Of a stretch of 64,000 bases of DNA, positions 3,294 to 60,390 are shown one piece after another. A program made the position numbers and the translations under genes. This stretch comes from a phage. The stretch lies in sequence record PZ445498.1, one strand, 5' to 3'. The notes below the pieces were generated by a model, which did not search any database, was not told the origin of the DNA, and worked only from the letters and a program-made list of their open reading frames with translations. Numbering within the stretch: the first letter of the stretch is position 1; each line of letters begins with the position of its first letter.

Positions 3294-3366
3294 ATATTTG
3301 TAAGTTGATAAACAAGATCTTTTTGTTGATCCTCTGTTAGCGAAGTACACTATAGGAGTGTTATTT

Positions 3367-4119
3367 ATGGGAAAAGCACGTCAAAAAAGAGAGAACCGCA
3401 ATGGTTCAAGAAAGCGTGGCAACAAGTATGAGAGTAACGTAATTCAAGCAGATTTCTCTGGTGATTACGCCAATCCAGTTGCTAAATCCCTAGTTGGTAA
3501 AAACCGTGAGCAAAAATCATATATCAATATGATCAAGAACAACACAGTGACTGTGGGTATTGGTGAACCAGGTACTGGTAAAACCTTTATTCCGTCCGTT
3601 CTTGCAGCTCAGGAACTCGTAGACATTCACTCAGATATTGAGCAAGTGATCCTCGTGCGTCCGAACGAACCTCTAGGTAAATCTCTTGGTATGCTCCCAG
3701 GTGATCTGGCAGAAAAGCTAGAGCCTTGGTTGGAACCAATAGCCGATGGCATGAAATGGTCAATCGGTGATCACGCCTACAAAGGATATGTCGAACGTCA
3801 GAAAATTAAATTCCTGGCTATCGAACATGCCCGTGGCCGAACTTTCAACAACTCCTATGTAATTGTCGATGAAGCTCAGAATATCTCCGTTGAAGCAATG
3901 ATCTGTCTCTTGACTCGTGTAGGACAAGATTGTCGTTTAATTATCTGTGGGGATATAGCTCAGAAAGACATCAAGGGTGATTCAGGTCTAGCACTTCTTA
4001 TGGAAGTCTATGAGAAGTACGAAAACTCTCCTTTCTCTATGATCGAACTGATCGACAACGTTCGCTCACCAGAGTCTAAAGCATTCTACGATATCTTTAA
4101 GGATATGGGGAAGGTGTAA
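3367..4119 (+). CDS. phoH: PhoH-like ATPase
   Basis: Walker A GEPGTGKTF and Walker B VIVDEAQN; start moved to the ATG at 3367, 6 nt after aggag (track start 3358 is GTG). Confidence 0.85.
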   Translation: MGKARQKRENRNGSRKRGNKYESNVIQADFSGDYANPVAKSLVGKNREQKSYINMIKNNTVTVGIGEPGTGKTFIPSVLAAQELVDIHSDIEQVILVRPNEPLGKSLGMLPGDLAEKLEPWLEPIADGMKWSIGDHAYKGYVERQKIKFLAIEHARGRTFNNSYVIVDEAQNISVEAMICLLTRVGQDCRLIICGDIAQKDIKGDSGLALLMEVYEKYENSPFSMIELIDNVRSPESKAFYDIFKDMGKV

Positions 4120-4120
4120 T

Positions 4121-4363
4121 ATGGGAAACGTCGTACATCTGCACCGCAAAACTAAGATCCACCGTACTTCATTGAGTGCTGCTAATATGATTACACGTAA
4201 GGAAGGGGAAGAAAGTCCTAAGACTACCCTAGCGTGGAAAATTGTAGCCTCTAATCCAAATCGGCCTTTCAACTATAATGAACTGAGTACTTCTATAGAC
4301 ATTCTTATGGCTAAGGAAATACGACAGAAACTAACTGATATGACCGATAAACTTAAATGGTAA
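4121..4363 (+). CDS. hypothetical protein
   Basis: 80-aa ORF immediately after phoH, followed by a terminator. Confidence 0.4.
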   Translation: MGNVVHLHRKTKIHRTSLSAANMITRKEGEESPKTTLAWKIVASNPNRPFNYNELSTSIDILMAKEIRQKLTDMTDKLKW

Positions 4364-4403: not shown

Positions 4404-4419
4404 ATCTGTAAAATTGTAC

Positions 4420-4448
4420 TTGCAAAATGACTCAAAACAAAGTAGAAT
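4420..4448 (+). promoter_or_regulatory. promoter (ttgcaa-17-tagaat), upstream of nrdA
   Basis: Follows terminator 4371-4403. Confidence 0.5.
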
Positions 4449-4486
4449 ATCTCCTAAATCCTGATAACTACAAAAAGGAAAGCCAA

Positions 4487-6820
4487 ATGAGCCATCGTAT
4501 AGAAAAAGTAATTAAACGTGACGGTACTGTTCAGGACTTTGCTCCTGAAAAACTCAATGATTGGGCTGCATGGGCATGTAAAGATACTGACGTAAGTTGG
4601 TCTGCCGTAGTTATGGCTGCCCTGAAAAATCTACCCAAAGGTGTTGTAGACTCCGATACACTCCAAGATGTGTTAATTAAAGCCGCTGAAGGTCTTATAA
4701 AAGACAATCCAGCATATGATACTGTAGCAAAGGAATTACGTCTTGCGCAGATGCGTAAACGCCTATATGATTCCTTCGAACCACCTTCTCTGCGTTTCTT
4801 CCACGATCATATGGTTCGTGTTGGCGCTTGGGAAGACATGAGTGCATGGATTAGCGATGATCAGTTTGATGCTCTGAATCAAGTTATTGATCATGATCGC
4901 GATCGTTTATTCACTAGTGGTGGACTGAAACAGTTCTTCGACAAGTATTCCCGTCGTAATATTGCAACTGGTGAAATTTATGAAACTCCGCAGTTTGCCT
5001 ACATGGGTATGGCAATGGCGATGTTATCTCAACCTAACTGGACAATTCTAGATGCAATCGACCTCTACAATGCAATGTCGCTCCACAAAATCAACGTTCC
5101 TACGCCGCCACTGGTTGGTCTGCGCTCTAGTGACCGTGGATTTGCTAGTTGCTGCCTCGTGGATTCCACTGACACGCTGGATTCAATCGACACAGCCGAG
5201 CACATCGTCTTCAAAATGGTCGCAGCCAGAGCGGGAATCGGGTATCATCTTGAAAGCCGATCAATTGCTGATCCGGTGCGAAATGGGGCATTCCCGCATT
5301 CCGGAAAACTGCCATATTATCGACACATTGACCGATCAGTAAAAGCTAACACTCAGCAAACCCGTGGCGGTTCTGCTACTGTGTCTTATCCATACTTCGA
5401 TCCTGAAATCATTCAGTTGATGCAGGTTAAGCAGCAACGTGCTACAGACGAGAATAAAATCGATAAGATGGATTACTCTCTGAGCTTTAACAACCTTCTA
5501 TTAAAACGTTACCTGAAAAACGAAGATATTACGCTAATGTCCTACTTCTACGCACCAGAAGTTCATGAAGCGTTTTATGGCGAAGATGAGGCTAAGTTTG
5601 AAGAAATCTACGTGGCAGCGGAGAAACGTGTGGCTTCTCTTACAAAGATCGACCACGAAGGAAAAACAATTCCAGCAGCTCCTAGAATCTCTGCAAAAGA
5701 AATCCTAGATACTTGGTTACGTATCCGTATGGAAACAGGGCGTATGTATGCTCATCACATTGGTGAATCTAACCGTCATGGTAACTTCCTTGACCCGATT
5801 CGTATGACCAACCTATGTGTTGAAATTACTCAGCCAACCAGGCCATTCCATCACATTACGGAGCTGTATAAGACCCAAGATCAGTTAGATGATATGCGTC
5901 CAGAAGATATTGGCGAAGTATCTCTGTGTAACTTAGGTGGAGTTGTACTAGGACGCATGGAATCTCTGGCTGAATGGGAAAAAACTTGCTACATTCTTCT
6001 GAAATTCGTTGATACCATCATTGAAATTCAGGACTATCCGTTCCCTACTATGGAATACACGGCTAAGAAGCGTCGTAACGTAGGTATTGGTCTGATGAAC
6101 GCAGCAGGTGCAATGGCAGCAGAAGGTCTGGCTTACGAAGGTGAAGAAGCCCGTAACTGGATTCACCGTGAAGCTGAGAAACTTTCTTACTTCCTGCATA
6201 AAGCCTCTGTACGTCTGGCTAAAGAACAAGGTGCATGTGACTGGTTTAATCGTACTAAACCATCCAAGGGGACTCTGGTAATCGACACGTATAAGAAAAC
6301 TGTTGATGAACTGGTAACTGTAGATCTAGAAATGGATTGGGAATCTCTGCGTGCAGATATTCTGAAATATGGTATGCGTAACTCTGTTCTGACTGCTCAG
6401 ATGCCCGGTGAAAGTTCCTCTGTACTGCTAGGTGTTACTAACTCTATCGAACCGCCTCGTAAGATTGTATCTATCAAGGGTAGTGCAGTGAATAAAGTAA
6501 TTGCAATTGCTCCAGGTGCAACTGATTGGGATACATTAATGAGTTATAAACTGGCTTATGATGTAGATCGTATCGAGTGGGTCAAATGGGTAGCAACCAT
6601 GCAGAAATTCTTCAGTCAGTCTATAAGTACGAATATGTACTATGACTACACCAAGTTTGAGAATGAAATTATTCCTGGCCCAGTAGTAGTTCGTGATTTC
6701 ATGACTGCTGTTAAGTACGGTTGGAAAACTTTCTACTATGCAAACTTTAACACCGAGAATGGTGGTGGTGCAGGGGAAGAAACTGCTGCTGGATGCGCAT
6801 CTGGTGGTTGTCAATTATAA
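4487..6820 (+). CDS. nrdA: ribonucleoside-diphosphate reductase large subunit (class Ia)
   Basis: ATP-cone start MSHRIEKVIKRDG, C-terminal Cys pair; start at the ATG after aaaggaaa RBS, downstream of promoter 4420-4448 (track start 4427 would lie inside the promoter). Confidence 0.9.
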   Translation: MSHRIEKVIKRDGTVQDFAPEKLNDWAAWACKDTDVSWSAVVMAALKNLPKGVVDSDTLQDVLIKAAEGLIKDNPAYDTVAKELRLAQMRKRLYDSFEPPSLRFFHDHMVRVGAWEDMSAWISDDQFDALNQVIDHDRDRLFTSGGLKQFFDKYSRRNIATGEIYETPQFAYMGMAMAMLSQPNWTILDAIDLYNAMSLHKINVPTPPLVGLRSSDRGFASCCLVDSTDTLDSIDTAEHIVFKMVAARAGIGYHLESRSIADPVRNGAFPHSGKLPYYRHIDRSVKANTQQTRGGSATVSYPYFDPEIIQLMQVKQQRATDENKIDKMDYSLSFNNLLLKRYLKNEDITLMSYFYAPEVHEAFYGEDEAKFEEIYVAAEKRVASLTKIDHEGKTIPAAPRISAKEILDTWLRIRMETGRMYAHHIGESNRHGNFLDPIRMTNLCVEITQPTRPFHHITELYKTQDQLDDMRPEDIGEVSLCNLGGVVLGRMESLAEWEKTCYILLKFVDTIIEIQDYPFPTMEYTAKKRRNVGIGLMNAAGAMAAEGLAYEGEEARNWIHREAEKLSYFLHKASVRLAKEQGACDWFNRTKPSKGTLVIDTYKKTVDELVTVDLEMDWESLRADILKYGMRNSVLTAQMPGESSSVLLGVTNSIEPPRKIVSIKGSAVNKVIAIAPGATDWDTLMSYKLAYDVDRIEWVKWVATMQKFFSQSISTNMYYDYTKFENEIIPGPVVVRDFMTAVKYGWKTFYYANFNTENGGGAGEETAAGCASGGCQL

Positions 6821-6829
6821 TAAAAACAA

Positions 6830-6856
6830 GGAGATCTTCGGGTCTCCTTTTTCTTT
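6830..6856 (+). terminator. rho-independent terminator after nrdA
   Basis: ggagatc-ttcg-ggtctcc followed by tttttcttt. Confidence 0.75.
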
Positions 6857-6866
6857 GAAATTTTAC

Positions 6867-6895
6867 TTGCTAATCGCTACCAGATTTGCTATAAT
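6867..6895 (+). promoter_or_regulatory. early promoter (ttgcta-17-tataat)
   Basis: Follows terminator 6830-6856. Confidence 0.6.
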
Positions 6896-6919
6896 ATCTC
6901 TATATTAAGGAGATATACT

Positions 6920-7438
6920 GTGAAACCTCAACTAACAAAAGAATTTCTAGAGAAATATCTAGAACTCAGAGAAGATACTCTCTATTGGAAGCCAAGAGAG
7001 ACTAATAAAGGTGGATTTAATACTAGATTTGCTGGAAAACCTGTAGGAGCCGTCAATGGAAATGGCTACCTATGCTTCCGACTTAACGTGGAAGGTTATA
7101 GATGGGAATTAAGAAATCATGTAGTAATCTTCTGTCTCTATTATGGATATTACCCAACTAAGACAGTAGACCATAAAGATACAAATAAACTTAATAACCA
7201 TCCTTTAAATCTACGAGAATCAACCGATGCTGGTAATGCCCAAAATAGGGGAGCCGGTAAAAACAATACCCATGGACATAAAAACCTAGAGCCTCTTAGT
7301 TCAGGAAACTGGAGGGTTAGGATAACACACAACGGTACTGTTTACAGATCTTCCGCAATGCCTCTAGAAAAAGCTCTAGAACATAGAGATATTAAACTTA
7401 AAGAATTTCATGGCGAATACGCTAATAATGGAGAATAA
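6920..7438 (+). CDS. HNH homing endonuclease
   Basis: 172 aa; VDHKDTNKLNNHPLNLRE HNH core, same family as ORFs 21918 and 40363; inserted between nrdA and nrdB. Confidence 0.7.
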   Translation: MKPQLTKEFLEKYLELREDTLYWKPRETNKGGFNTRFAGKPVGAVNGNGYLCFRLNVEGYRWELRNHVVIFCLYYGYYPTKTVDHKDTNKLNNHPLNLRESTDAGNAQNRGAGKNNTHGHKNLEPLSSGNWRVRITHNGTVYRSSAMPLEKALEHRDIKLKEFHGEYANNGE

Positions 7439-7441
7439 TTA

Positions 7442-8587
7442 ATGACAACCTTACTAAATCTGAACTGGAATCCTGATTCTGAAGAGCTATTTCTCGGAGA
7501 TGCCCTGGGAGTAGCAGACTATGTTCGTGTTGCTCATCCAGAGCTAGAACGACTCGCACTATTACAGAGGAGCCAGTTTTGGACTGAAACTGAAATCAGT
7601 CTAGAAAGTGACAAAAAGCAATGGCCTAATCTTCCAAGAGAAATACAAGAAATCACTCTGCTGAACTTAGCTTGGCAGGTTCAAACAGATTCTTTCATTA
7701 GTCGTGCTCCTGAGGCAGCTATTATGCCACTTGTAAGCCGTCCTGAATTGGAAGGTATGCTCAAGCAGTGGAGCTACTTCGAAGATCTGCATAGCCGTGC
7801 ATATAGTAACATTATTCGTAACGTTCTGACTGATCCAGCAGAATTTATTGATTCTGTAACTAAAAACCAAGAAGCATTTGCACGTATCGCAGATTCTGTT
7901 GAACTGTTTGATGAATTGTATCTGTTAGGCCAGTATTTCCTTGCAGTACGTGATCATCGTGGTGATAATACTTATCCAGAAACTGAGTTCCCTGAAGTTA
8001 AACGTGAAACTCAGGCTAAACTGTTAGACGCTTACTTTGCAATCTACGGTCTGGAAGCAATGCAGTTCTACGCATCCTTTGCATGTACCTTTGCTCTAGC
8101 AGAGAACGATATTCTGCAAGGTATTGCTAAGAACCTGCAATTAATCGCTAAAGATGAAGCTCTACATACTCAAATGTCTAAAGCTATCATCCAGATTATG
8201 TTCCAGCAGTTTGATAAAGATCTGGTAGATGAAGCATTAGCTAAAGCACCAACACAACTCCTAAAAACTCTGAAAACTGAGATTGAATGGGGTCACTTTA
8301 TCTTTAAAGGCCGTAGTCTGATTGGTTTGAACGCAGAACTGCTTGAAGAATACCTTTACTTTGTAGGACGTAACGCATTTATGCACATTGGTGTAGAATG
8401 GCCAAGCCACTTACCTGTAATTACTAAGAACCCTATTCCGTGGATTATGAACTGGCTGGATACTACTTCCTTACAGCCTGCCCCACAAGAAATCCAGATT
8501 GGTGCAGCATATCGTGTGGGTCAGGTAACTGAAACTTCTGCTGATACCCTGAAAGATCTGGGTAACGAATTTGAGGGCATGTTCTAA
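7442..8587 (+). CDS. nrdB: ribonucleoside-diphosphate reductase small subunit
   Basis: 381 aa, directly downstream of nrdA, with the helical di-iron fold sequence pattern. Confidence 0.9.
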   Translation: MTTLLNLNWNPDSEELFLGDALGVADYVRVAHPELERLALLQRSQFWTETEISLESDKKQWPNLPREIQEITLLNLAWQVQTDSFISRAPEAAIMPLVSRPELEGMLKQWSYFEDLHSRAYSNIIRNVLTDPAEFIDSVTKNQEAFARIADSVELFDELYLLGQYFLAVRDHRGDNTYPETEFPEVKRETQAKLLDAYFAIYGLEAMQFYASFACTFALAENDILQGIAKNLQLIAKDEALHTQMSKAIIQIMFQQFDKDLVDEALAKAPTQLLKTLKTEIEWGHFIFKGRSLIGLNAELLEEYLYFVGRNAFMHIGVEWPSHLPVITKNPIPWIMNWLDTTSLQPAPQEIQIGAAYRVGQVTETSADTLKDLGNEFEGMF

Positions 8588-9117
8588 TGATAGCAGCAAT
8601 CTATGCAACTGGGCCGAATGGGGAGTTCGGCCTCAATGGTAAACTCCCTTGGGGTTCTTTCAAAGAAGAACTAAATACTTTCTATGCTACTTTGGATTCT
8701 CTAGCACCTGATAATATTATTGTAGGAGCAGGAACTTGGTTAGCCTTCCCTGAGACTCTGCAAAAAAGAATACTAGGAGATTCTGACCTATTTATTTATG
8801 CAAATAGACCACTACCTAACTCTGTAGGATCAGCTACACGCATAAGCAACATTGGATACCGTCTGCCTGATTTTCTCAAGGAAGAGGTAACTGTAGTATT
8901 AGGGGGAGCAACTCTGCTTCTTGAAATGTATGTCAAAAATCATCTAGATATGGCGTATATCTCTACTATTACTTCAGCCACACCATTATCTGCTGATGTA
9001 CATCTGCATCATCATATTACTTTAACTAATTCAATGGCAACTAGAATGGACTATGTGGCAGGACAGAATGCAGATAAAACGCTTTCATTCTTACAAGAAT
9101 TGGTGATATTTAAATGA
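8587..9117 (+). CDS. frd: dihydrofolate reductase
   Basis: [23 protein letters not shown]-terminal DHFR signature; translationally coupled to nrdB and thyA. Confidence 0.85.
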
Positions 9118-9971: not shown

Positions 9972-10325
9972 ATGTTAATTATACTATTATTTGTCATATT
10001 CTTTCTAAAACATTTTATGGCCGATTATCCACTCCAAACACCATATATGCTAAGAAAGACGCATAAAATAGGGTGGAAACTTCCATTATTAACCCATTCG
10101 CTAGTACATGCTGGATTAACATTTGCAATTCTAATCCTATTCACATCACCAGGAATGTCTATAGCTTTAGCTATTATGGAATTAATTCTACACTTTATTA
10201 TAGATTATTGGAAAGCACAACGCTGTAAATACGCTATAAGCGATGCTAAGTTTTGGATAGCTTTAGGATTTGATCAGTTACTACATTATCTGACATACGC
10301 CCTAATAATCTTGATTATAATCTAA
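9972..10325 (+). CDS. hypothetical membrane protein
   Basis: 117 aa, several hydrophobic helices. Confidence 0.5.
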   Translation: MLIILLFVIFFLKHFMADYPLQTPYMLRKTHKIGWKLPLLTHSLVHAGLTFAILILFTSPGMSIALAIMELILHFIIDYWKAQRCKYAISDAKFWIALGFDQLLHYLTYALIILIII

Positions 10326-10330
10326 TTCAA

Positions 10331-10352
10331 ATAGCCCTTCGGGGCTATTATA
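10331..10352 (+). terminator. hairpin terminator
   Basis: agccc-ttcg-gggct followed by AT-rich tract. Confidence 0.5.
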
Positions 10353-10363
10353 TTTAAATTTCA

Positions 10364-50430: not shown

Positions 50431-50882
50431 GATCCTGCAAGTCTCGGTGCACAATACCTGTACCGAGACTCAAATACAAACTCTCGTTGACAGATAACTA
50501 AATGTATGTTATCATAACTCTATGAGTTAATAGAATTAACCATTTAGAGTTGCCACACAGAAGGTGTGGTGGTTCAGGAATCTTAAATTACTGACTTGTA
50601 GCGTAGGTTACGGAGCGACAGGACAAGTCAACAGGTAATTTAATAAAGATTACTAGAAACATCACGAGACCTTCTGGCGGGGGCAAAGCTCTATATGAGA
50701 ACCCTGGGGGATCTTATACTTATATAAAAACTGATACTGTTGAATAGATAAATTAACGTTCAAGATGATACACCGGTTGCCGCTCATCTGCTAGGATGGC
50801 ACAACACTTTCTAGTAGACTCCTAAGTTTCTAGGAAAACTCACGCATTCTAGGGCAGTTTCTCTCCAACGTTACATATCCTA

Positions 50883-50941
50883 GGGCGGTTTCCTATACAG
50901 GGCGGTTATAGGGAGGGCGGTTATAGGGAGGGCGGTTATTT
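50883..50941. repeat. short tandem repeat (gggcggttataggga units)
   Basis: Four gggcggtt cores within 60 bp. Confidence 0.8.
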
Positions 50942-50982
50942 CTAGAAGACATTTTTCCAAAACACATTTCTGGAAATTGCTA

Positions 50983-51582
50983 TCGGATTTGCACATTATG
51001 TTTCTAGAAATTTATGGTCGGATTTGCACATTGATAGGAGTCTCCAAAGTTTTTAGGAACACTGAAAATAGCAGCATTATTTCGGGCCGAAGGCCCATAT
51101 TTGCCTGAGTTTTTAGAGCCACAGGAATTTTCACTTGTCAAGCTGTTTTGCCCCCTTTTGCTAATAAAATTTCGTATAATCTCCCCGAATCTCACTTCTA
51201 GCCAAAACATCCCACATTATCCCCAAAAACGCAGCAAACCGGTGCTAAAGCACCATCACCGCTGCTCCTCCCGTAGTTCCTCCCAAAATCTCATCGGATT
51301 CGCACTTCTCCCCAAACCCACACAATCACACACCCTCCCATCAAAGTCACAAAAATCTTGTCGGATTTGCACATCTCAACACATGTCGGATTTGCACATA
51401 CTCTAGTAAATCCAGCTGGATTGCATTGCAGTTGCGGATTGCTGGAGTTTTTAGGAAAATTCATTGTCGGATTCGCACACTATAAAAATATTTCCCATCG
51501 GATTTGCACACTACCAAAAATTGTCGGATTCGCACATACACGCCCACACGTAACACCCGTGGAGCAATGTCGGATTTGCACA
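50983..51582. repeat. dispersed direct 13-mer TCGGATT(T/C)GCACA, 9 copies
   Basis: Copies at about 50983, 51018, 51294, 51361, 51386, 51467, 51498, 51524 and 51570, all on the plus strand; degenerate copies near 51413 and 51433. Confidence 0.8.
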
Positions 51583-51617
51583 AAAGCGCAGGGCAAAATG
51601 AAAATGCCCTGCCTGCC

Positions 51618-51775
51618 GAAATGCGAATGATAATGAGATTGATTCTCATTTGAAAAGTTGAATGCGAATGATAATGATTCGCGTTTAGAAAGTGGAATGA
51701 GAATGGTTATCATTTACAGAATTGAATGCGAATGAGTTGCATAATGATAATGATTCGCATTTAGAAAGGGAAGTG
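51618..51775. repeat. AT-rich repeats and palindromes built on AATGCGAATGATAATGA
   Basis: Three direct copies of gaatgcgaatga plus inverted partners (aatgcgaat ... attcgcatt). Confidence 0.75.
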
Positions 51776-51794
51776 AGAAACACTGCTATTTAAG

Positions 51795-51803
51795 TTATCC
51801 ACA
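51795..51803. promoter_or_regulatory. DnaA-box consensus TTATCCACA
   Basis: Exact 9-mer match. Confidence 0.45.
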
Positions 51804-51884
51804 GGTTTATTAACAGCACGATTTGACTTGACAAAATCCTAGCGATTTTGAGGCGTTATCAACAGACTTATTAACAGGTTATTC

Positions 51885-51904
51885 TACTGTATAAATATAC
51901 AGTA
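51885..51904. promoter_or_regulatory. LexA (SOS) box-like palindrome TACTGTATAAATATACAGTA
   Basis: Fits TACTG-N10-CAGTA exactly. Confidence 0.5.
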
Positions 51905-52274
51905 TATTCCAGCAGGAGAATAATCTAATATAGCCTTTAAACGCTCTGTAACGCAGTCTAACGCGTTTATTTTTGGAGGAGGTATTTTAATAAGGGGAAG
52001 TTTGAGGAAGACCAGAAAAAGCGGGGCCGGTAGTTGCGCCCCGTTATTATTAGCGGTAGATGTATTGTTGCCAGTAGCGGCGGATATTGTCGCCACCGTC
52101 GGGATCATTAGCAGACCTAATATTACCTATAAAAATATATAGTTTCATAACGCCATCGCTCCTAGAATGAGAATGATTATTATTAACATTGTGAAGCCAT
52201 TACCAAATCGTAAACGCTGGGAATGTTTCCCAGCGGTATTATTAGATTTATGGCTTTGTGTTTTTCGCCACCAG

Positions 52275-52623
52275 CTATTCATAAGCTGATTTCCGAAACG
52301 TTGTTTCAATACTATCCGCAGTGGATTGAATATACGCGCCTTTCATAATCAGGCGCTCTGTACACACTTTGCGGAAAATGTCAATAAATTCATTTTCATT
52401 TTCCGCTATTAACGCTTCCCCCATAACCTGAACGTCACAAGACCCAAAAGTTAAAAATTGAAACGCTAGTTCACGGGCGACAACGGCAGAAATTTTATAA
52501 TGTGCTTTGCCCTCATAGATATTAACCACGCCTTTATAAACTGGTGAAAGCTGATTTAAATAGTTTGCTAATAATGCCGGACGGCAATTAGTTACAAATC
52601 GGTTGCCCTCGTAAATTACCATT
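52275..52623 (-). CDS. hypothetical pre-early protein
   Basis: Start reassigned to the internal ATG (MVIYEGN) coupled to the upstream stop (TAAAATG). Confidence 0.45.
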
Positions 52624-52836
52624 TTATAACACTCCCCGAAACGCAGCGTAAAAGGTGGCAAAGTGTTTAACCGTTTCGGATACCAAATTGCCGCGCTTGT
52701 CAAATTTCTTTTCTGTAACACGAAAGGCGTTTTTATTGCGTGGTACATATTCAATTTTACAGTCTAGACGCTCGAACGTGTTAACATCCACCAGCTTAAA
52801 ACCTTTGGAACGGGCAAGGGAAACATTCTTTAACAT
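52624..52836 (-). CDS. hypothetical pre-early protein
   Basis: 70 aa, aaagggga RBS. Confidence 0.45.
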   Translation of the reverse strand: MLKNVSLARSKGFKLVDVNTFERLDCKIEYVPRNKNAFRVTEKKFDKRGNLVSETVKHFATFYAAFRGVL

Positions 52837-52838
52837 TT

Positions 52839-52988
52839 TTATTCCCCTTTACCAGTCATACAGCCTAACAAGTAAGAAAAACCCGCGATACCTGCTCCAA
52901 TAATAACCACGTGAACGCCGAAAGCTATTGCAAACAGTGATAAAATAGCGCCCAAGATACCTGCTAGAACTGATCGAAAAATAACCAT
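52839..52988 (-). CDS. small hydrophobic peptide (49 aa, below the ORF-track cutoff)
   Basis: aggag RBS; MVIFRSVLAGILGAILSLFAIAFGVHVVIIGAGIAGFSYLLGCMTGKGE. Confidence 0.35.
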   Translation of the reverse strand: MVIFRSVLAGILGAILSLFAIAFGVHVVIIGAGIAGFSYLLGCMTGKGE

Positions 52989-53036
52989 TTTATTAGCTCC
53001 TAGAAATTAGGGGCGAAAGTAACGCCCCGTTATTAA

Positions 53037-53264
53037 TTACATTAAAACAATTTTTGCCGCTTGCTTTTTGGTGCAGTGGTTAGCTTTCAATTCATCCAGC
53101 AAAAATCCGGCTGTTTGCTGATCAATCTTGTCATTGTCGTAAAGCCCCTGAATGGTAACATAAGTTTTACCAATCCCAAATTCAGAAACCATAACGCTGA
53201 CAATAGCGGGAACGGATACCCATTCCATACCGTTAAAAATTGCAGAAGATGATGAATATACCAT
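53037..53264 (-). CDS. hypothetical pre-early protein
   Basis: 75-aa ORF downstream of the 333-aa gene on the same strand. Confidence 0.4.
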   Translation of the reverse strand: MVYSSSSAIFNGMEWVSVPAIVSVMVSEFGIGKTYVTIQGLYDNDKIDQQTAGFLLDELKANHCTKKQAAKIVLM

Positions 53265-53384
53265 TTTAACGCCTCCTAGAAATCAGGGAAAAATTTTCAA
53301 TCCACCGTTTCGGTGTAAAGGCATTATAACAAAAAAGGCCGCCATAATAGGCGACCTTTACAAAACTTTACATTAGACTAATTA

Positions 53385-54386
53385 TTATTCGCTTTCAGCG
53401 TTTTGGGTAAAGGTGGAAATGTCAATACCTTTTACCATTTCGTCGATCATTTCAGCGATGTTAAAAGATTGTACCATTTCTAGCATTGCCGCTTCCATTG
53501 CCGCGCCTGCTACCGCTTTTGCTTTCGCGTTATTCGGGGCGTACTGGTCAACTGCTACACTCAGCAGGTTAGCAATAACTACCCGACCGATAGGCGTATC
53601 AATATAACCCTTGATAATAAACGGCGCTTTTTTCGCCGCTACTTTTGTGATTTGAGTCAGTGCAATTTTACCTGCTTCCAGTTTAGCAGCGTTTACAACG
53701 GCGGATTTATTAGCGGCAACGATAGAAGATACTTTAGACATAATATTTCCTTTATTTTCAGTAGTTTGCGCATTTGCGCTTGAAGTTTGAGATTGTACAG
53801 CCTGTTTTGTTACAATGTCAAGCGGTAAAAGTGTAAATCCAGCATTTGCAACGTTTGATTCATTCCCATACTCTAAATAATCGTTAGGAATCAACATGTT
53901 ACCGCTAGCGCGTTCAAAACACAATACGCCAGTTGTTTCGATTGCGTCACTATCCGCACCTTTATAACTGGATGATAATTCACGCCAGATACTATTTAAT
54001 AACGATCCGACACTATCCAGCCGGATATTATTTACTTTTGTTGCTGTTACCTGCTCCTTTTCTTGCACGTTATATAATCGCGCAATGTAACCACTATGAG
54101 ACTCATTATAGCCAACAATGATAAAATCAATATCAGTTCCACGACTATTACGGAAAATATGATAATCACGGTTGAAAATTACTAGCGCCCTTGTCTGGTC
54201 TAGTAATAGCGTGAAATCATCGACTGAATAATGAGTATCATTATTATCTAAAATATCCTCGTGAATCTTTTCGATAATAGTAGCCGTATGTTGTAGGCTT
54301 GCCGCGCTACTACCATCTAGCAGGTTGCGCAAACTACCTTTTAAAATAGTGGCGTTTGCTGGTACTGCAATTCTTACAGTAGACAT
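53385..54386 (-). CDS. hypothetical pre-early protein (333 aa), function unknown
   Basis: Largest leftward ORF of the higher-GC block; no motif I recognise. Confidence 0.6.
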   Translation of the reverse strand: MSTVRIAVPANATILKGSLRNLLDGSSAASLQHTATIIEKIHEDILDNNDTHYSVDDFTLLLDQTRALVIFNRDYHIFRNSRGTDIDFIIVGYNESHSGYIARLYNVQEKEQVTATKVNNIRLDSVGSLLNSIWRELSSSYKGADSDAIETTGVLCFERASGNMLIPNDYLEYGNESNVANAGFTLLPLDIVTKQAVQSQTSSANAQTTENKGNIMSKVSSIVAANKSAVVNAAKLEAGKIALTQITKVAAKKAPFIIKGYIDTPIGRVVIANLLSVAVDQYAPNNAKAKAVAGAAMEAAMLEMVQSFNIAEMIDEMVKGIDISTFTQNAESE

Positions 54387-54644
54387 TTCTTTACCTCCCT
54401 CGTTAATCGGTGAGTGAATGATATAGATATTTGTTCATTAGGGGCAAGAAAAAAGAAAAGGTTTTTTATTCCTTGCCTACTGCCTGTTTTTATGATATCC
54501 GCGCGTTTTCTATTTCTAGCACTCTGTAAGTGTACACAAGGCTTTATTATAATAAGGGCAGCAGTGAGAAAACGCCGTGTAGCGCGTTCTAGGCCGCTTA
54601 AATTTGATTGCGGTTGTTACTGCTACCATTCTACCCTGTATATT

Positions 54645-54664
54645 TATACAGTAGGATAACCTGT
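54645..54664. promoter_or_regulatory. LexA box-like palindrome CTGT-N8-ACAG
   Basis: cctgtatatttatacagtag in the divergent intergenic region. Confidence 0.45.
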
Positions 54665-54673
54665 ATATAAGTC

Positions 54674-54682
54674 TGTGGATAA
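54674..54682. promoter_or_regulatory. DnaA box (TGTGGATAA, reverse complement of TTATCCACA)
   Basis: Exact 9-mer; 8/9 matches also at 54723-54731 and 55008-55016. Confidence 0.45.
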
Positions 54683-55494
54683 GTCGCCAAAACGTCGCCT
54701 ATTGCGTCAAGTTATTTTGTGCTGTGGATAGCTTTGTGCATAACCTAAATGATAGTGGTTCTCACTTAGCCCGATAGTTTCTCATAGTTATTATTTCTCA
54801 TTAATTTATGTGTATATTATATATTATGAAATAGTTAGTTGGCTAATAGATTTTTAGAGTATTAATAGTCTGCTAACTGTTTCGGCTGTTACAATCCACC
54901 AGCGTGATTATCATCCTAGCGATTATTAGTCTGCTAATGCTCTGATGCACGTCCAGACTTATTTGTCAATGAAAAATAACAGCAGAAAATACTTTTTTGA
55001 AAAATCAAGTGGATAACTCATTAAATTTCATTTTTGCTTTTTGTATAAGTTATTAACAGGGTCTAAAACGCTCTGTAACGCATTCTAAGCGCCTCAAAGG
55101 AAAAGATAGGCAATCATAAGGGGTACACCGAGAAAACCTCACCACGAGGATTTTAGATTTTGTCAAGTACCCTAGAGCAGATATAAATGAAAAAATTACT
55201 TGCTAAAATGGTTGTTTTGGTGTTATTCGCGCGCCCGTTTCATTAAATTTAATGCGCCGCTGGACGTTTGCGAGTAGTGGTTTTCTTTACGTTTCTTTAC
55301 AAAAATACGCTTGCGCCCTTCTCGGTATTCTCCTATTATTTATCACGTAGGGCGGCAATGACGAACTACACGGCGGGGATAACAGCGATTGACAGTCTGT
55401 TTGACCTTTCAAAACCCTGCCATGCTCTTTAAAAATTAGGGAACATCTTAAAGCCTATCGGCGGTAAACTTAGATATTATAAGGAATCGACGAT

Positions 55495-55704
55495 ATGAAA
55501 CAAACGCTTTTGATCACTGGCAAGCCTATCAAGTCGCTTGATAGCAGAACAAAAAATTTGTTGACAGTAGCGCAACGATCTGTAAAATACAGATTCAAGC
55601 AATACAAGAAAGGCAAGCAACAAGGGCTGGAAATGGTGTGGCGTAATATAATGATTGATTTATATAACTCCCATCAAATCGAAAAAAGTTTAAAAAACGA
55701 TTGA
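55495..55704 (+). CDS. hypothetical pre-early protein
   Basis: 69 aa, basic. Confidence 0.45.
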   Translation: MKQTLLITGKPIKSLDSRTKNLLTVAQRSVKYRFKQYKKGKQQGLEMVWRNIMIDLYNSHQIEKSLKND

Positions 55705-55870
55705 CACGCTAGCCGATAGGTTTTAAGATGTTCCCCGTAGTAACTGCTCTTTAACAATTTGGAAAAACGGTAATGTTTAGGCTAACTCCTAGCGGATTAT
55801 AATCTAATAGCGTTTCAAAGTATCGAGGCGCTATTGTGGAATAATCCCCCAATAAACCGGAGTATTAAAA

Positions 55871-56122
55871 ATGCAAAACGTTATCACCGCACCGAAAGTA
55901 GGTCAATCCGTTTTTATTCCTTTCGTTACTAAAACGGATGAATTAACTGGAAAAGCTGAACGTATTAAAGGTGCGGCGCTTGATCCCTTTGATAAAATTG
56001 AAGCGGTCTATGCGGAAACGGAACGCAGTAATCACGGCAAGCCGATTTATAACGTCCGTGTTAAATCTGGCGACGTTGTAAAGATCATTCAGAAGGATGA
56101 TAAATGGCAAGCCATAGCATAA
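55871..56122 (+). CDS. hypothetical pre-early protein
   Basis: 83 aa, ggagta RBS. Confidence 0.5.
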   Translation: MQNVITAPKVGQSVFIPFVTKTDELTGKAERIKGAALDPFDKIEAVYAETERSNHGKPIYNVRVKSGDVVKIIQKDDKWQAIA

Positions 56123-56222
56123 ATTAGTGTTACTTTTATATTCCCCTGAAATATGGGGAATATATGGATTAACATTAGTTAATCATAATCCCTTAATTAA
56201 TAATTGAATGGAGTATTAAATT

Positions 56223-56639
56223 ATGTCTAACGTTAAAACCGAAAAAACCGCAAAATTTTCTTGGAACGAAGAAAACACCGAAAAGGCTGTTTCTATGTAT
56301 TCTGAAATGGTCGCTAAAAGCGGAATTGAATTTGCTAACACTGACGGCTTAAAAGAAATCGCCGCCGCCGTTGGCGCGGCGTCCCCTGTCTCTGTACGTT
56401 CTAAACTGACCAGCGCAAAAGCATACCAGAAAAGCGACAAGCCGCGCAAAGTTGGCGGCGGTAGCTCAATCCGTAAAGCTCACTATGTGCGCGTTATCGC
56501 TAAACACGCCATTGATTCAGGCATTATCAAAGACGCCGATGATCTGGCAAGTTTGGAAAGTGCAAAACTGGAAACGCTGGAAGCCGTGGCGCAATTGTTA
56601 GGCGTTGCCGATGAAGTAAAACAGGCCGCAGGCGAATAA
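56223..56639 (+). CDS. hypothetical pre-early protein (about 15 kDa; possible A2-like)
   Basis: 138 aa; host-like codon usage; size and position next to the A1-like gene are the only basis for the A2 suggestion. Confidence 0.5.
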   Translation: MSNVKTEKTAKFSWNEENTEKAVSMYSEMVAKSGIEFANTDGLKEIAAAVGAASPVSVRSKLTSAKAYQKSDKPRKVGGGSSIRKAHYVRVIAKHAIDSGIIKDADDLASLESAKLETLEAVAQLLGVADEVKQAAGE

Positions 56640-56672
56640 ATTTAATCAGCGGGGAATATTCCCCGCTATAAT
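56640..56672 (+). terminator. hairpin after the pre-early 138-aa gene
   Basis: cagcgggg-aatatt-ccccgctat. Confidence 0.45.
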
Positions 56673-56678
56673 TTCCCT

Positions 56679-56894
56679 TTGACCGGAGTTATTAAAATGA
56701 TCTTCTTTCCTAGTGAATCCCTCATTCTAGGCTTGTTTATTATGGCGGCCTCATTATTATTCGCTTATTTTCAAAATGATTTAGATTCATATTATTTTAA
56801 GCGTAAATCTAAATTCGCAAAGAGTTTAGGTCTTATTTGTTTTATTGCCGCCGTTGCTCTTGGTGTAAGTTCTAGCCTAATGCCGATTAGTTAA
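56679..56894 (+). CDS. small membrane protein
   Basis: 71 aa, two TM helices. Confidence 0.45.
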   Translation: MTGVIKMIFFPSESLILGLFIMAASLLFAYFQNDLDSYYFKRKSKFAKSLGLICFIAAVALGVSSSLMPIS

Positions 56895-56991
56895 ATGTTG
56901 CAAATTATAACGCTGTAAATAAACGGCGTTATATTTGGCAATATTGCCAGCTTTAAAATGTTTTAAATCCCTTTAATGGAGTTAAATTAAT

Positions 56992-58656
56992 ATGAATATT
57001 TCCGCAGAAAAACAGTCTCAGATCACTAAACTTGCCGCTGATTTTAATTTCTACGGTAAGCGTTTACGCGCTACCAAACTTGAAGTTTGCGACGATATTT
57101 CAAAAGCTGTTTATGTTACGCCGAAACATTCAACGTCAATTTGTGACTGGCTGGAAGCAAATAAACCAGCGAAACCGAAAGCGGCAAAAGCCGAAAAGGC
57201 GATTAAAAACGATGATCGCCCAGAGGCGGCGGGAATTGTTTCTAGCACCGTTGAGCAATGGGAAGTTAAATCCGGTAAACGCTTTATTATTACCTCGATT
57301 CAGAATAATACTTTCCCGCATAAAAACTTTTTAGCAAGTCTGGAAAAATTCGCTGAATATATCGGCGCTGAATTGCTAATCAGTAAATTCATTTATAATA
57401 AAAATGGATTCCAGAATGGGGAAGGCGGCGAAAAAATCAAATATGATCCCGCATTTGACAAATATATTTGCGAGAAAAACGTATTTTTAAATAACCGCCG
57501 CTTTGCTTTCATGGCTGAAATTAACGTTTTGCCAACGGCTGATTATCCGCTTTCAGGATTCGCAGAAACCGCCACCGCTTTAAATATCGAAGGTCTGGCA
57601 ATTGGTCACGCAAAAATTACCGCTGAAAGTGTGCCAGCGTTAAAAGGTGAAGTAGTACGCCGTATGTACTCCACCGGAACGGCTACACTTAAAAACTATA
57701 TTCAGCAGAAAGCAGGTCAAAAAGCTGAGGCGCTGCATAATTTCGGCGCTTTGCTGGTAGAATTTGACGACGACGGCGAATTTTTTGTTCGCCAGCTTGA
57801 AACAATGGACGAAAGCGGAATGTTCTATGATTTGAATGTTTGCGCTATACCAACCGGATGTTTCAAAACATCTGATCATGTTTTAGGCTTGCAATATGGC
57901 GATATTCACGCCGAAAAATTAGATGATGATTGTGCCGTTGCGTCATGGGTGGGCGAAAATAGCTTGCTTGATATTCTTAAACCAAAATATCAGTTTATCC
58001 ATGATGTGCATGATTTTACATCGCGCAATCATCATAATCGCGCCTCTGGTGTATTCCTAGCTAAACAGTATGCCGCCGGACGTGACAAAGTTATTGACGA
58101 TCTCATTGATACCGGTCGCGTGTTGGAGTCAATGGAGCGCGATTTTTCTCAAACAATCATCGTGGAATCCAATCATGATCTAGCGTTATCCCGTTGGCTT
58201 GATGATCGTAATGCTAACATTAAAGACGATCCAGCCAACGCGGAACTATATCACAGCCTAAACGCTGCGATTTATGCGGCTATTGCAAAACAAGATGATA
58301 CCTTTAACGTATTGGATTATGCGCTTAGAAACGTTGCAGGTTGCGAATTTAACGCTATTTTCCTGACTACTGACCAATCGTTTAAAATTGCAGGAATTGA
58401 ATGCGGTGTGCATGGTCACAACGGCATTAACGGCAGTCGGGGCAATCCTAAACAGTTTAAGAAGTTGGGACGCCTCAACACTGGCCATACTCACACGGCG
58501 AGCATTTATGGCGGCGTGTATACCGCTGGCGTTGCTGGTAGTCTCGATATGGGTTACAACGTTGGCGCTAGTAGCTGGACGCAAACGCATTTAATTACCT
58601 ATGCAAACGGGCAACGTACTTTGATTGATTTCAAAAACGGTAAATTCTTTGCATAA
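56992..58656 (+). CDS. A1: A1-like pre-early protein with C-terminal metallophosphoesterase (Mre11/SbcD-like) domain
   Basis: 554 aa; GDIHAE, ESNHD, GVHGHNG and GHTH motifs in the C-terminal half; size matches my recollection of T5 A1. Confidence 0.65.
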   Translation: MNISAEKQSQITKLAADFNFYGKRLRATKLEVCDDISKAVYVTPKHSTSICDWLEANKPAKPKAAKAEKAIKNDDRPEAAGIVSSTVEQWEVKSGKRFIITSIQNNTFPHKNFLASLEKFAEYIGAELLISKFIYNKNGFQNGEGGEKIKYDPAFDKYICEKNVFLNNRRFAFMAEINVLPTADYPLSGFAETATALNIEGLAIGHAKITAESVPALKGEVVRRMYSTGTATLKNYIQQKAGQKAEALHNFGALLVEFDDDGEFFVRQLETMDESGMFYDLNVCAIPTGCFKTSDHVLGLQYGDIHAEKLDDDCAVASWVGENSLLDILKPKYQFIHDVHDFTSRNHHNRASGVFLAKQYAAGRDKVIDDLIDTGRVLESMERDFSQTIIVESNHDLALSRWLDDRNANIKDDPANAELYHSLNAAIYAAIAKQDDTFNVLDYALRNVAGCEFNAIFLTTDQSFKIAGIECGVHGHNGINGSRGNPKQFKKLGRLNTGHTHTASIYGGVYTAGVAGSLDMGYNVGASSWTQTHLITYANGQRTLIDFKNGKFFA

Positions 58657-58708
58657 TTAAATTTAATCGGCGGTTGAAATATGCCGCCATTAATAAAAGG
58701 ATAATTAA

Positions 58709-58987
58709 ATGACGATTAAAATTAATCTTCCATCTAGTAAAAATATGTCTGATACATATGCCATTGATAATATCGGGCATGGCACTGTATACCGTAATAT
58801 AAAAGATGGTGACTGTTATATTTATCAAAATCCGATAAATGGTCATTCTTATATAATTGAATCAGGGGATTTTTATTCCTTTGAAACTGATTATGAGGCG
58901 AGGGATTATTTGCAGGAACAAGATATTCCCGATGTGTGGAAAGAAACAAATTTAAACTTTGTTGTAAGTTTAGAAGTCAATAAATAA
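58709..58987 (+). CDS. hypothetical pre-early protein
   Basis: 92 aa. Confidence 0.5.
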   Translation: MTIKINLPSSKNMSDTYAIDNIGHGTVYRNIKDGDCYIYQNPINGHSYIIESGDFYSFETDYEARDYLQEQDIPDVWKETNLNFVVSLEVNK

Positions 58988-59023
58988 ATTAATCCCGTAA
59001 TTAAATAATCTGGAGTCATAAAC

Positions 59024-59416
59024 ATGAAAAACCAAAACATTCCTTTTGATCGCGCTACTTCTTCCATCGTTCTAGTTTACTCTAATGGCGAACGTTATCA
59101 CGTCGAAGCGGGGCAAGTTAATTTTGATTTGCTGAATTATAACGCCGCTTTGCAGGTTACTACCTTTGCTTATGATACCGGCAAAGTGGCAAGCCATACG
59201 AAAGCAAAAGGCGTTTACGCTGATACTTTGACAGTGCAAACAATTATTATTGACGCTGTAAAATCAGGTCTAGCGTTTGCAGTTGTCGCGCCATGCCCCG
59301 CTTGCCTTGATAATGCTCTTATGTCTGCAAAGGTCTACACTTGCGCGGGGATTCGTTCCAGCGTATCAGGTGAGGATATTAGTTTTATCGCTGATGCGTT
59401 GGCGTATGGTCTTTAA
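59024..59416 (+). CDS. hypothetical pre-early protein
   Basis: 130 aa, followed by a hairpin at 59437-59462. Confidence 0.5.
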   Translation: MKNQNIPFDRATSSIVLVYSNGERYHVEAGQVNFDLLNYNAALQVTTFAYDTGKVASHTKAKGVYADTLTVQTIIIDAVKSGLAFAVVAPCPACLDNALMSAKVYTCAGIRSSVSGEDISFIADALAYGL

Positions 59417-59436
59417 TAGTTAATTTATTATTACCC

Positions 59437-59462
59437 GCTTATAAATAGCGGGTAATGCTGAA
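59437..59462 (+). terminator. hairpin in the pre-early region
   Basis: acccgcta-taaa-tagcgggt. Confidence 0.45.
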
Positions 59463-59492
59463 TTAACTACCCTTAAATGGAGAATGTAACAA

Positions 59493-60197
59493 ATGAATCA
59501 AGTCAACATGAATATTACCCGCGCTTTCCCGCATATTTCCCGCGTTATGATTTGGGATTTAGACGGAACGATTATAAATTCTTTCCATCGTGTAGCGCCT
59601 TGTTTTGATGGCAACGGTAATTTAGATTTAGCTAAATATTCCCGTGAAGCCTGCAAACATGATTTAATTATGCAGGATTCTTTATTGCCGTTGGTTGAAT
59701 ATATGCGCCAATGTATGAATGATGCAAATACTTTAAATATTATTTGTACCGCGCGCCTTATGTCTAAAAGCGCTTACTTTTATTTGCGTAAACAAGGCTT
59801 GCGAGGGCGCGGAAATAGCAATATCCGCGTATTCTCCCGCGATACATTACACAAATACTTTGAAGCGGATAAGGTTAGCGAAATATATCATAGTAAAGAC
59901 GCTGTATACAAAAGCTATTACTTTGAACTATTTAAACAGCTATATCCGAACGCTGATTTTACGATGATTGATGATCATAAAGGCGTATTATCGGCGGCGG
60001 CAAGTGCTGGATTCAAAACACTGGACGCCCAAGCCGTTAACGATATCCTATCAATCGGCGTAGCATTGATCGGTGAAACCTTTATTGATGAATCGTTAGA
60101 TGATGATAACGATTATCAATTCCTAGCCGAACGTTTAAAAATGTGTTGGGAAGGTATGACCGAGGAAGAACGCGCGGAATATAGTACCACACCGTAA
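59493..60197 (+). CDS. dmp: HAD-family 5'-deoxyribonucleotidase (dmp-like)
   Basis: HAD motif I VMIWDLDGTIINS; position in the pre-early block as for T5 dmp. Confidence 0.6.
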   Translation: MNQVNMNITRAFPHISRVMIWDLDGTIINSFHRVAPCFDGNGNLDLAKYSREACKHDLIMQDSLLPLVEYMRQCMNDANTLNIICTARLMSKSAYFYLRKQGLRGRGNSNIRVFSRDTLHKYFEADKVSEIYHSKDAVYKSYYFELFKQLYPNADFTMIDDHKGVLSAAASAGFKTLDAQAVNDILSIGVALIGETFIDESLDDDNDYQFLAERLKMCWEGMTEEERAEYSTTP

Positions 60198-60390
60198 CAA
60201 TTCATTGATAAATTAAAAGTTGCCTAACAATTAAAAATAAAATAGTCACACTGTGTAATGATAACATGGTGTGACTATTAGCTTGCTAAGTACCGGGGCG
60301 GTAATGAGACTCATTCTCATCTAGGGAACCTCTGGGCCCACCTTCATGTGTAATCTTATGAGATTTCGAGAATTGGTAATTAGCGCTAAC

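Follow-up and report, generated by a model that had tools for sequence, protein, structure and literature searches.

A five-gene leftward unit orthologous to T5 genes 011–015

We analysed 64,000 nucleotides (nt) of phage DNA (sequence record PZ445498.1), referred to throughout as the window, and focused on a leftward operon at positions 52275-54386. On the minus strand this interval holds five co-oriented open reading frames (ORFs) of 333, 75, 49, 70 and 115 amino acids (aa). The operon is the already known 011–015 unit of phage T5, carried here by a phage whose DNA closely resembles that of published ones. By megablast the window belongs to Epseptimavirus, the EPS7-like relatives of T5 within the Demerecviridae, with phage Ace (96%) as the best match, EPS7 at 93.5% and DNA identities to published genomes of ~93-96% among the top-listed records. 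The window runs as the reverse complement of the standard T5 map.

Orthology was determined by blastp against the left terminal repeat of T5 (NC_005859). The five ORFs are colinear with T5.011–T5.015, lie in the same orientation and match them one-to-one. The 333-aa ORF (53385-54386, on the minus strand like the other four) is the ortholog of T5.011 (56% identity; phrog_4263) and is followed by the 75-aa ortholog of T5.012 (53037-53264; 73% identity; phrog_5145). The 49-aa ORF (52839-52988) corresponds to T5.013 with 63% identity and a 10-aa loop deletion (phrog_5607), the 70-aa ORF (52624-52836) to T5.014 with 90% identity (phrog_4227) and the 115-aa ORF (52275-52622) to T5.015 with 86% identity over the full length and retention of all six lysines (phrog_4379). 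A good Shine-Dalgarno (SD) sequence stands in front of all five ORFs, each ORF is assigned to a PHROG family, and megablast finds the region conserved in 459 phage records; together these properties argue that the ORFs are genes and not chance.

An original prediction, made from the letters of the window, had described five tightly coupled minus-strand ORFs of 333, 75, 49, 70 and 116 aa. The ORF coordinates bear out the number, the strand and the first four lengths, but the last figure had counted the stop codon, the true length being 115 aa; a mechanical ORF list gives the same frame as 159 aa from an upstream TTG start. Tight coupling holds for the 49-, 70- and 115-aa genes only, and both junctions that had been named, TAAAAATG (49 to 70 aa) and TAAAATG (70 to 115 aa), are present in the sequence. 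It does not extend to the other two intervals. The 333- and 75-aa genes are separated by 120 nt that contain a strong intrinsic terminator (53359-53334), and the 75- and 49-aa genes by 48 nt that contain a GC hairpin.

Three small minus-strand ORFs follow downstream with ATGA overlaps (52145-52282, 52050-52148 and 51884-52108; 45, 32 and 74 aa), and we rejected them as an extension of the operon. These ORFs (51884-52282) have no family matches, their DNA is non-coding in EPS7 and Ace and they are probably spurious; the five ORFs therefore make up the complete unit here. At the other end, gene mapping confirms that the unit diverges from a plus-strand unit of 009, hdi, 007, A2, 005, A1, 003, 002 and dmp (55358-60224), as had been predicted, and the DnaA boxes and LexA-box-like palindrome that had been claimed for the intergenic region are found there.

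Transcription signals resemble those of T5. A promoter scan and alignment with T5 locate a sigma-70 promoter, TTGCCC-18-TATCAT, at 54418..54447 on the minus strand, followed by the SD GAGGGAGG and then the ATG of the 333-aa gene. The promoter block is close to a base-for-base match to the annotated T5 promoter upstream of T5.011 (6411-6489), and by analogy with T5 we infer that it acts as the promoter of the unit. Behind the 333-aa gene, the scan detects an intrinsic terminator with a 10-bp stem and a T-run (53334..53359, minus strand), whose stems are identical to those of the annotated T5 terminator 7534-7559. Directly after the T-run and ahead of the 75-aa gene stands an extended -10-like element, TGTTATAAT (53323..53331, minus strand), a consensus match only, which is invariant between the window and T5 and may be a separate promoter for 012–015. 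The probable end of the transcription unit, on weak evidence, is a palindromic GC hairpin with a T-rich tract (52215..52235, minus strand). The scan lists this hairpin on the plus strand only; the stem is palindromic, and the T-rich tail of the minus strand, TTTACGATTT, was read from the sequence.

The unit is bracketed by the arms of a 132-nt inverted repeat. The upstream arm, of IRC-spacer-IRD type (54636..54767), carries DnaA boxes and a LexA-box-like palindrome, and the downstream arm, of IRD'-spacer-IRC' type and at the start of the injection-stop region (51771..51902), carries DnaA boxes and a near-consensus LexA box. Such a pair with DnaA boxes has been described in 25 T5-like phages (Davison, bioRxiv 10.1101/866236). 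A CTGT-N8-ACAG palindrome stands at the end of each arm (51885-51904 and 54634-54653), the copy on the injection-stop (iss) side, TACTGTATAAATATACAGTA, matching the 20-bp LexA-box consensus at all but one position. In 64 kb, where 0.05 such sites would be expected, these two are the only ones, and both are conserved across T5, EPS7 and Ace. The repeat analysis of Davison (bioRxiv 10.1101/866236) discusses DnaA boxes and never LexA, and we found no link between LexA and T5-like repeats in the papers searched. Beyond the downstream arm, ~50500-51770 is non-coding and dense in short repeats, spurious ORF translations of which repeat ITALP-like motifs; by position it corresponds to the T5 injection-stop region.

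The proteins of the unit and experiments on their T5 orthologs

Searches of the five proteins against Pfam, PHROGs, NCBIfam, PADLOC and PDB sequences returned only DUF7566, function-unknown PHROGs and the label of phrog_4227, which is disputed below. The 75-aa protein has no match in Pfam or among PDB sequences. The 49-aa protein, with a maximum hydropathy of 2.64, is predicted to be a two-helix membrane hairpin. The 70-aa protein is basic, with an isoelectric point (pI) of 10.1 and 15 lysines plus arginines.

The T5 orthologs have been studied directly. Mahata 2021 (PNAS, PMC8201957) cloned 13 T5 pre-early genes, of which 008, 011 and 015 were toxic. T5.015 binds Ung and nicks the abasic sites that Ung makes, leading to arrest of replication and division, and an inactive 015 mutant carried three lysine substitutions (PMC8201957). 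Annor 2026 (bioRxiv 10.64898/2026.04.02.716235) cloned all 17 genes and found 011, 013 and 015 to be the toxic genes in this arm; T5 012 and 014 are non-toxic (PMC8201957; bioRxiv 10.64898/2026.04.02.716235). In the later study T5 011 caused uneven, disorganised nucleoids and is said to resist "functional predictions", Gp013, a protein with two transmembrane segments, brings about lysis upon expression, and T5 phage without hegG–017 is viable. Wild-type T5 011 was not clonable in pBAD24, whereas a recoded copy was (bioRxiv 10.64898/2026.04.02.716235). By analogy with T5, genes 011–015 should be dispensable in the laboratory. The original prediction had called the operon uncharacterised and proposed toxicity tests and deletion analysis. 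With each of 011–015 of T5 already expressed in Escherichia coli and the hegG–017 arm deleted, these experiments have largely been done in T5, and so that description is out of date.

A modular DUF7566 protein and its candidate internal start

The 333-aa protein matches Pfam DUF7566 from end to end (E=1.6e-139; score 465.6 bits, cut-off 27; residues 1-333 aligned to model positions 1-336). It comprises an N-domain (residues 1-195), a disordered linker of Q, S, T and N (196-215) and a C-terminal module, the C-module (216-333). Identity to T5.011 is 39% in the N-domain and 92% in the C-module. AlphaFold2 predicts the N-domain with a predicted local distance difference test score (pLDDT) of ~90 and, from a deep alignment, an all-alpha C-module with a pLDDT of 85. 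The first half of the C-module is basic (pI 10.3) and the second half acidic (pI 4.3). Our searches gave no informative sequence or fold relatives of the protein. Two further identities were tried and rejected: the N-domain as a divergent HIRAN domain (hhalign probability 0.15%; no Pfam HIRAN match) and the C-module as a membrane anchor (maximum KD19 1.33; no transmembrane-grade stretch).

A profile of the C-module was searched against 1.84 billion representatives, with clustering at 50% identity. About 720 protein clusters match (479 at E<=1e-10), nearly all only over their last ~120 residues. Architectures were counted in the best 149 of the ~720 clusters. The C-module lies at the extreme C terminus in all 149, behind 0-425 unrelated residues; the N-domain is of the window type in only 13 and a HIRAN domain in 23, one is ExoX-like, and a PHROG scan of the 149 representatives finds the N-domains almost all to be function-unknown. 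The family extends over T5-like, 190-kb and 372-kb phages. Other large phages also encode free-standing C-module proteins of ~120 aa; the genes lie in early or accessory regions, and their genomic context shows no recurrent informative neighbour.

Two individual loci are worth recording. One free-standing C-module gene lies ~6 kb from a gene for Gad2 (anti-Gabija, PF26128; coordinates of the pair 3332-4351 and 10001-10357), in an accessory region with ribonucleotide reductase, thioredoxin and ligase genes. On an IMG/VR contig of jumbo-phage size (372 kb; locus ~4001-4327), a near-free-standing C-module has only ~26 codons ahead of the module Met; upstream of it stand an AGGAG SD and a sequence, TTGACA-17-TATAAT, that agrees with the sigma-70 consensus at all 12 of 12 positions.

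In the 333-aa gene the C-module begins at a potential start of its own. The ATG of Met216 (53741) follows six bases after AAGGA (53752-53748) and opens a nested in-frame ORF of 118 aa and 12.3 kDa (53385..53741, minus strand). We tested this arrangement on 55 viral loci with 35 unique fusions, using other in-frame ATGs or codon positions of the same ORFs as controls. An in-frame ATG with a canonical SD core at suitable spacing occurs at the module boundary in all 35 fusions, against 10-16% at the controls (P ~5e-16, with lineages that are not all independent). Because these signals precede the module in every fusion, we infer that the gene makes a second, nested product, that is, a 36-kDa fusion together with a 12-kDa C-module.

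A promoter-like element, TTGACA-18-TACAAT (11/12; 53792..53821, minus strand), is predicted ~50 nt upstream of the internal start. It is the best minus-strand match in a 4.5-kb scan and the sole match of at least 10/12 in the gene. An element at the same position is present in T5 (TTGACA-18-TAAATT), EPS7, Ace and most T5-like loci, despite differing overlapping codons. In T5-like phages the C-module may therefore also have a transcript of its own. The only other 11/12 match in the scan falls within hdi, where the characterised P_H22 of T5 maps: TTGACA-16-TAAAAT lies in the hdi ORF at 55561-55588 (plus strand), the position at which this strong promoter is annotated within T5.008. The failure to clone wild-type T5 011, and success with a recoded copy, fits leaky internal expression, with other explanations possible.

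Interpretation and comparison with known systems

The original prediction had placed the operon among the pre-early genes of a T5-like phage, as a divergent unit with products for host takeover, and this is supported. We consider it highly likely that the unit represents, in Epseptimavirus, the second pre-early, first-step-transfer unit of T5 type, that its genes are 011–015 and that they encode accessory host-takeover factors. Orthology, synteny and signal conservation come from our own comparison; the toxicity, dispensability and nickase mechanism of the window genes are carried over from T5 experiments. On this reading the terminator behind 011 would set it apart from 012–015, which would be reached by read-through or from the extended -10 element, and 013, 014 and 015 would be translationally coupled. 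The 115-aa protein (015) would bind the host uracil-DNA glycosylase and nick Ung-made abasic sites in host DNA containing deoxyuridine monophosphate, and this nicking would stop replication and division. The 49-aa hairpin (013) would insert in the membrane and be lytic if overproduced, and the 333-aa protein (011, DUF7566) would perturb the nucleoid. In the last of these, a variable N-domain (HIRAN elsewhere) would direct to DNA a conserved core formed by the helical C-module.

Several points weigh against parts of this reading. Every function assigned to the genes of this phage is a transfer from T5, and the two T5 studies disagree over 013, which was non-toxic in Mahata 2021 and toxic in Annor 2026. 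Moreover, the N-domain of the 333-aa protein is so divergent from that of T5.011 that the phenotype of the window 011 may differ from that in T5. Existing annotations also give other names to two of the proteins. In RefSeq (T5.014, EPS7 AGC_0012 and other records) and in phrog_4227, it is the 70-aa protein that bears the name 'endonuclease nicking abasic sites generated by host uracil glycosylase Ung'; if they are right, this protein would be the Ung-dependent nickase in place of the 115-aa protein. The strongly basic 70-aa protein would be suited to DNA binding, and it was by lysine substitutions that 015 had been inactivated. However, the gene list of Mahata 2021 omits 001, 004, 006 and 010. 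Only under the locus-tag numbering of AY543070/NC_005859 do these numbers stand for dmp, A1, A2 and hegG; the list is consistent solely with that numbering, in which 015 is the 114-aa protein (T5 coordinates 8300-8644) and not the 70-aa one (8086-8298). A different T5 record (UniRef Q5DMS9) gives the name "ORF015" to a sequence identical to the 70-aa protein of T5, which would explain the mix-up in RefSeq and PHROG as an off-by-one transfer. In UniProt the activity ("DNA-(apurinic or apyrimidinic site) endonuclease") belongs to the 114-aa family, and Annor 2026, who numbered genes as in NC_005859, saw the 015 phenotype again and no harm from 014 (bioRxiv 10.64898/2026.04.02.716235). There is thus little room for the view of RefSeq and PHROG, whose naming of the 70-aa protein probably goes back to a slip in numbering, and comparison of the sequences points to the 115-aa ORF as the ortholog of the T5.015 abasic-site nickase, an activity that it would share by analogy with T5. 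Still less credible is the name "DNA N-6-adenine methyltransferase", carried by many UniRef members of the family of the 333-aa protein and by the record of phage STG2, from which alone it has apparently spread. The SAM-binding FxGxG motif and the catalytic (D/N/S)PP(Y/F/W) motif are both absent from the 333-aa protein, Pfam and NCBIfam give no methyltransferase profile match and there is no such fold. With motif, profile and fold tests all failing, we reject this identity.

The internal signals of the 333-aa gene could likewise be read in another way, as the scar of an old gene fusion from which only the full-length protein is made, the module having no separate existence in T5-like phages. 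Free-standing module genes exist, making fusion by loss of a stop codon plausible, and recoded T5 011, from which the internal signals were probably lost, is still toxic. The amino-acid content of the linker (K-G and Q-E codons) could in part mimic an SD; as for the internal promoter, it is recognised only by its match to the consensus, and distant relatives lack it. Set against a mere relic is the persistence of SD and ATG in all 15 distant fusions with unrelated N-domains, at 33-62% module identity, compared with the much lower frequency at control positions; in T5-like phages the promoter-like hexamer pair also stays at a fixed distance across amino-acid changes. We regard the scar as a possibility to be taken seriously, although a doubtful one. 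Somewhat less likely again is that the unit is an anti-defence cassette, as the original prediction had suggested, in which at least one of 011, 012 and 014 inhibits restriction, RecBCD, Dam/Dcm methylation or abortive infection. T5-like phages have pre-early functions without an assigned gene, namely protection against RecBCD and restriction and, in Epseptimavirus and Tequintavirus alike, avoidance of Dam/Dcm methylation (PMC10644984). Like many accessory counter-defence genes, 011–015 can be dispensed with on laboratory hosts, an arms race could account for a constant C-module behind changing N-domains, and one free-standing module lies near a Gad2 gene. Yet we found nothing of this kind by similarity: PADLOC, which covers defence proteins and not anti-defence, gives no match at E<=0.1 for any ORF, and Pfam and NCBIfam likewise give none. 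Epseptimaviruses carry 011–015 but are reported to be generally sensitive to restriction-modification, whereas Tequintaviruses are resistant (PMC10644984). The sole member of known mechanism, 015, attacks host DNA and not a defence system, and the phenotypes of 011 and 013 are host toxicity.

Taken as the host-takeover unit of T5 type, the operon itself changes little as a finding, being a known unit whose genes have been through toxicity and deletion experiments in T5. What is useful lies in the names and architecture of its proteins. The nickase name, probably on the wrong protein, is spreading with the 70-aa family through hundreds of phage annotations, and the corrected assignment points to the 115-aa family; the methyltransferase name on the DUF7566 family is unsupported and can be set aside. 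The third addition is the two-module and probably two-product architecture of DUF7566. T5.011 can now be studied as two modules with a candidate internal start and promoter, which may be why it was hard to clone. The nested-product model, if correct, would define a modular family of early proteins that is widespread among phages and linked to domains that bind DNA. A more ambitious combination, to which we give only tentative credence, joins the two-product gene to a large, unrecognised family of phage early proteins in which swappable N-domains direct a common core to host DNA, the core causes the nucleoid disorganisation and toxicity of T5.011 and the internal promoter explains its resistance to cloning.

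Compared with the T5 pre-early unit T5.011–T5.015 (NC_005859 6495-8644), the window has the same five genes in the same order at 56-90% protein identity. Also common to both are the promoter block, the terminator after 011, translational coupling and the position between the IRC/IRD inverted repeats. The window differs in lacking hegG (010), 016 and 017 of T5, in the loop deletion of 013 and in the low identity of the 011 N-domain. It also lacks the 102- and 164-aa genes that EPS7 carries between 011 and 012, as well as two genes present in EPS7 and Ace, a small one behind 015 and a homolog of 017; judged by gene content, the window unit would be a minimal version relative to these two phages. 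Among the window, T5, EPS7 and Ace, the 011–012 gap (window 53265-53384) is an insertion hotspot, with two extra genes in EPS7 (102 and 164 aa; 6585-7401), one in Ace (164 aa; 4406-4900) and none in the window or T5.

The 333-aa protein invites comparisons of its own. Pfam DUF7566 models the T5-type protein as one unit, whereas here only the last ~118 residues are the widespread element, and the T5-type N-terminal part is one among many alternatives in the C-module family. HIRAN (PF08797), a domain that binds DNA 3' ends, takes the N-terminal position in the 23 representatives counted above and is unrelated to the N-domain of the window. In-frame nested genes that yield both products are documented in phages, as phiX174 A/A*, T7 4A/4B and lambda C/Nu3. 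Unlike in those cases, the second product is here a prediction from sequence. The arrangement is the same: the C-terminal part of the 333-aa ORF has its own SD and ATG and is read in the same frame.

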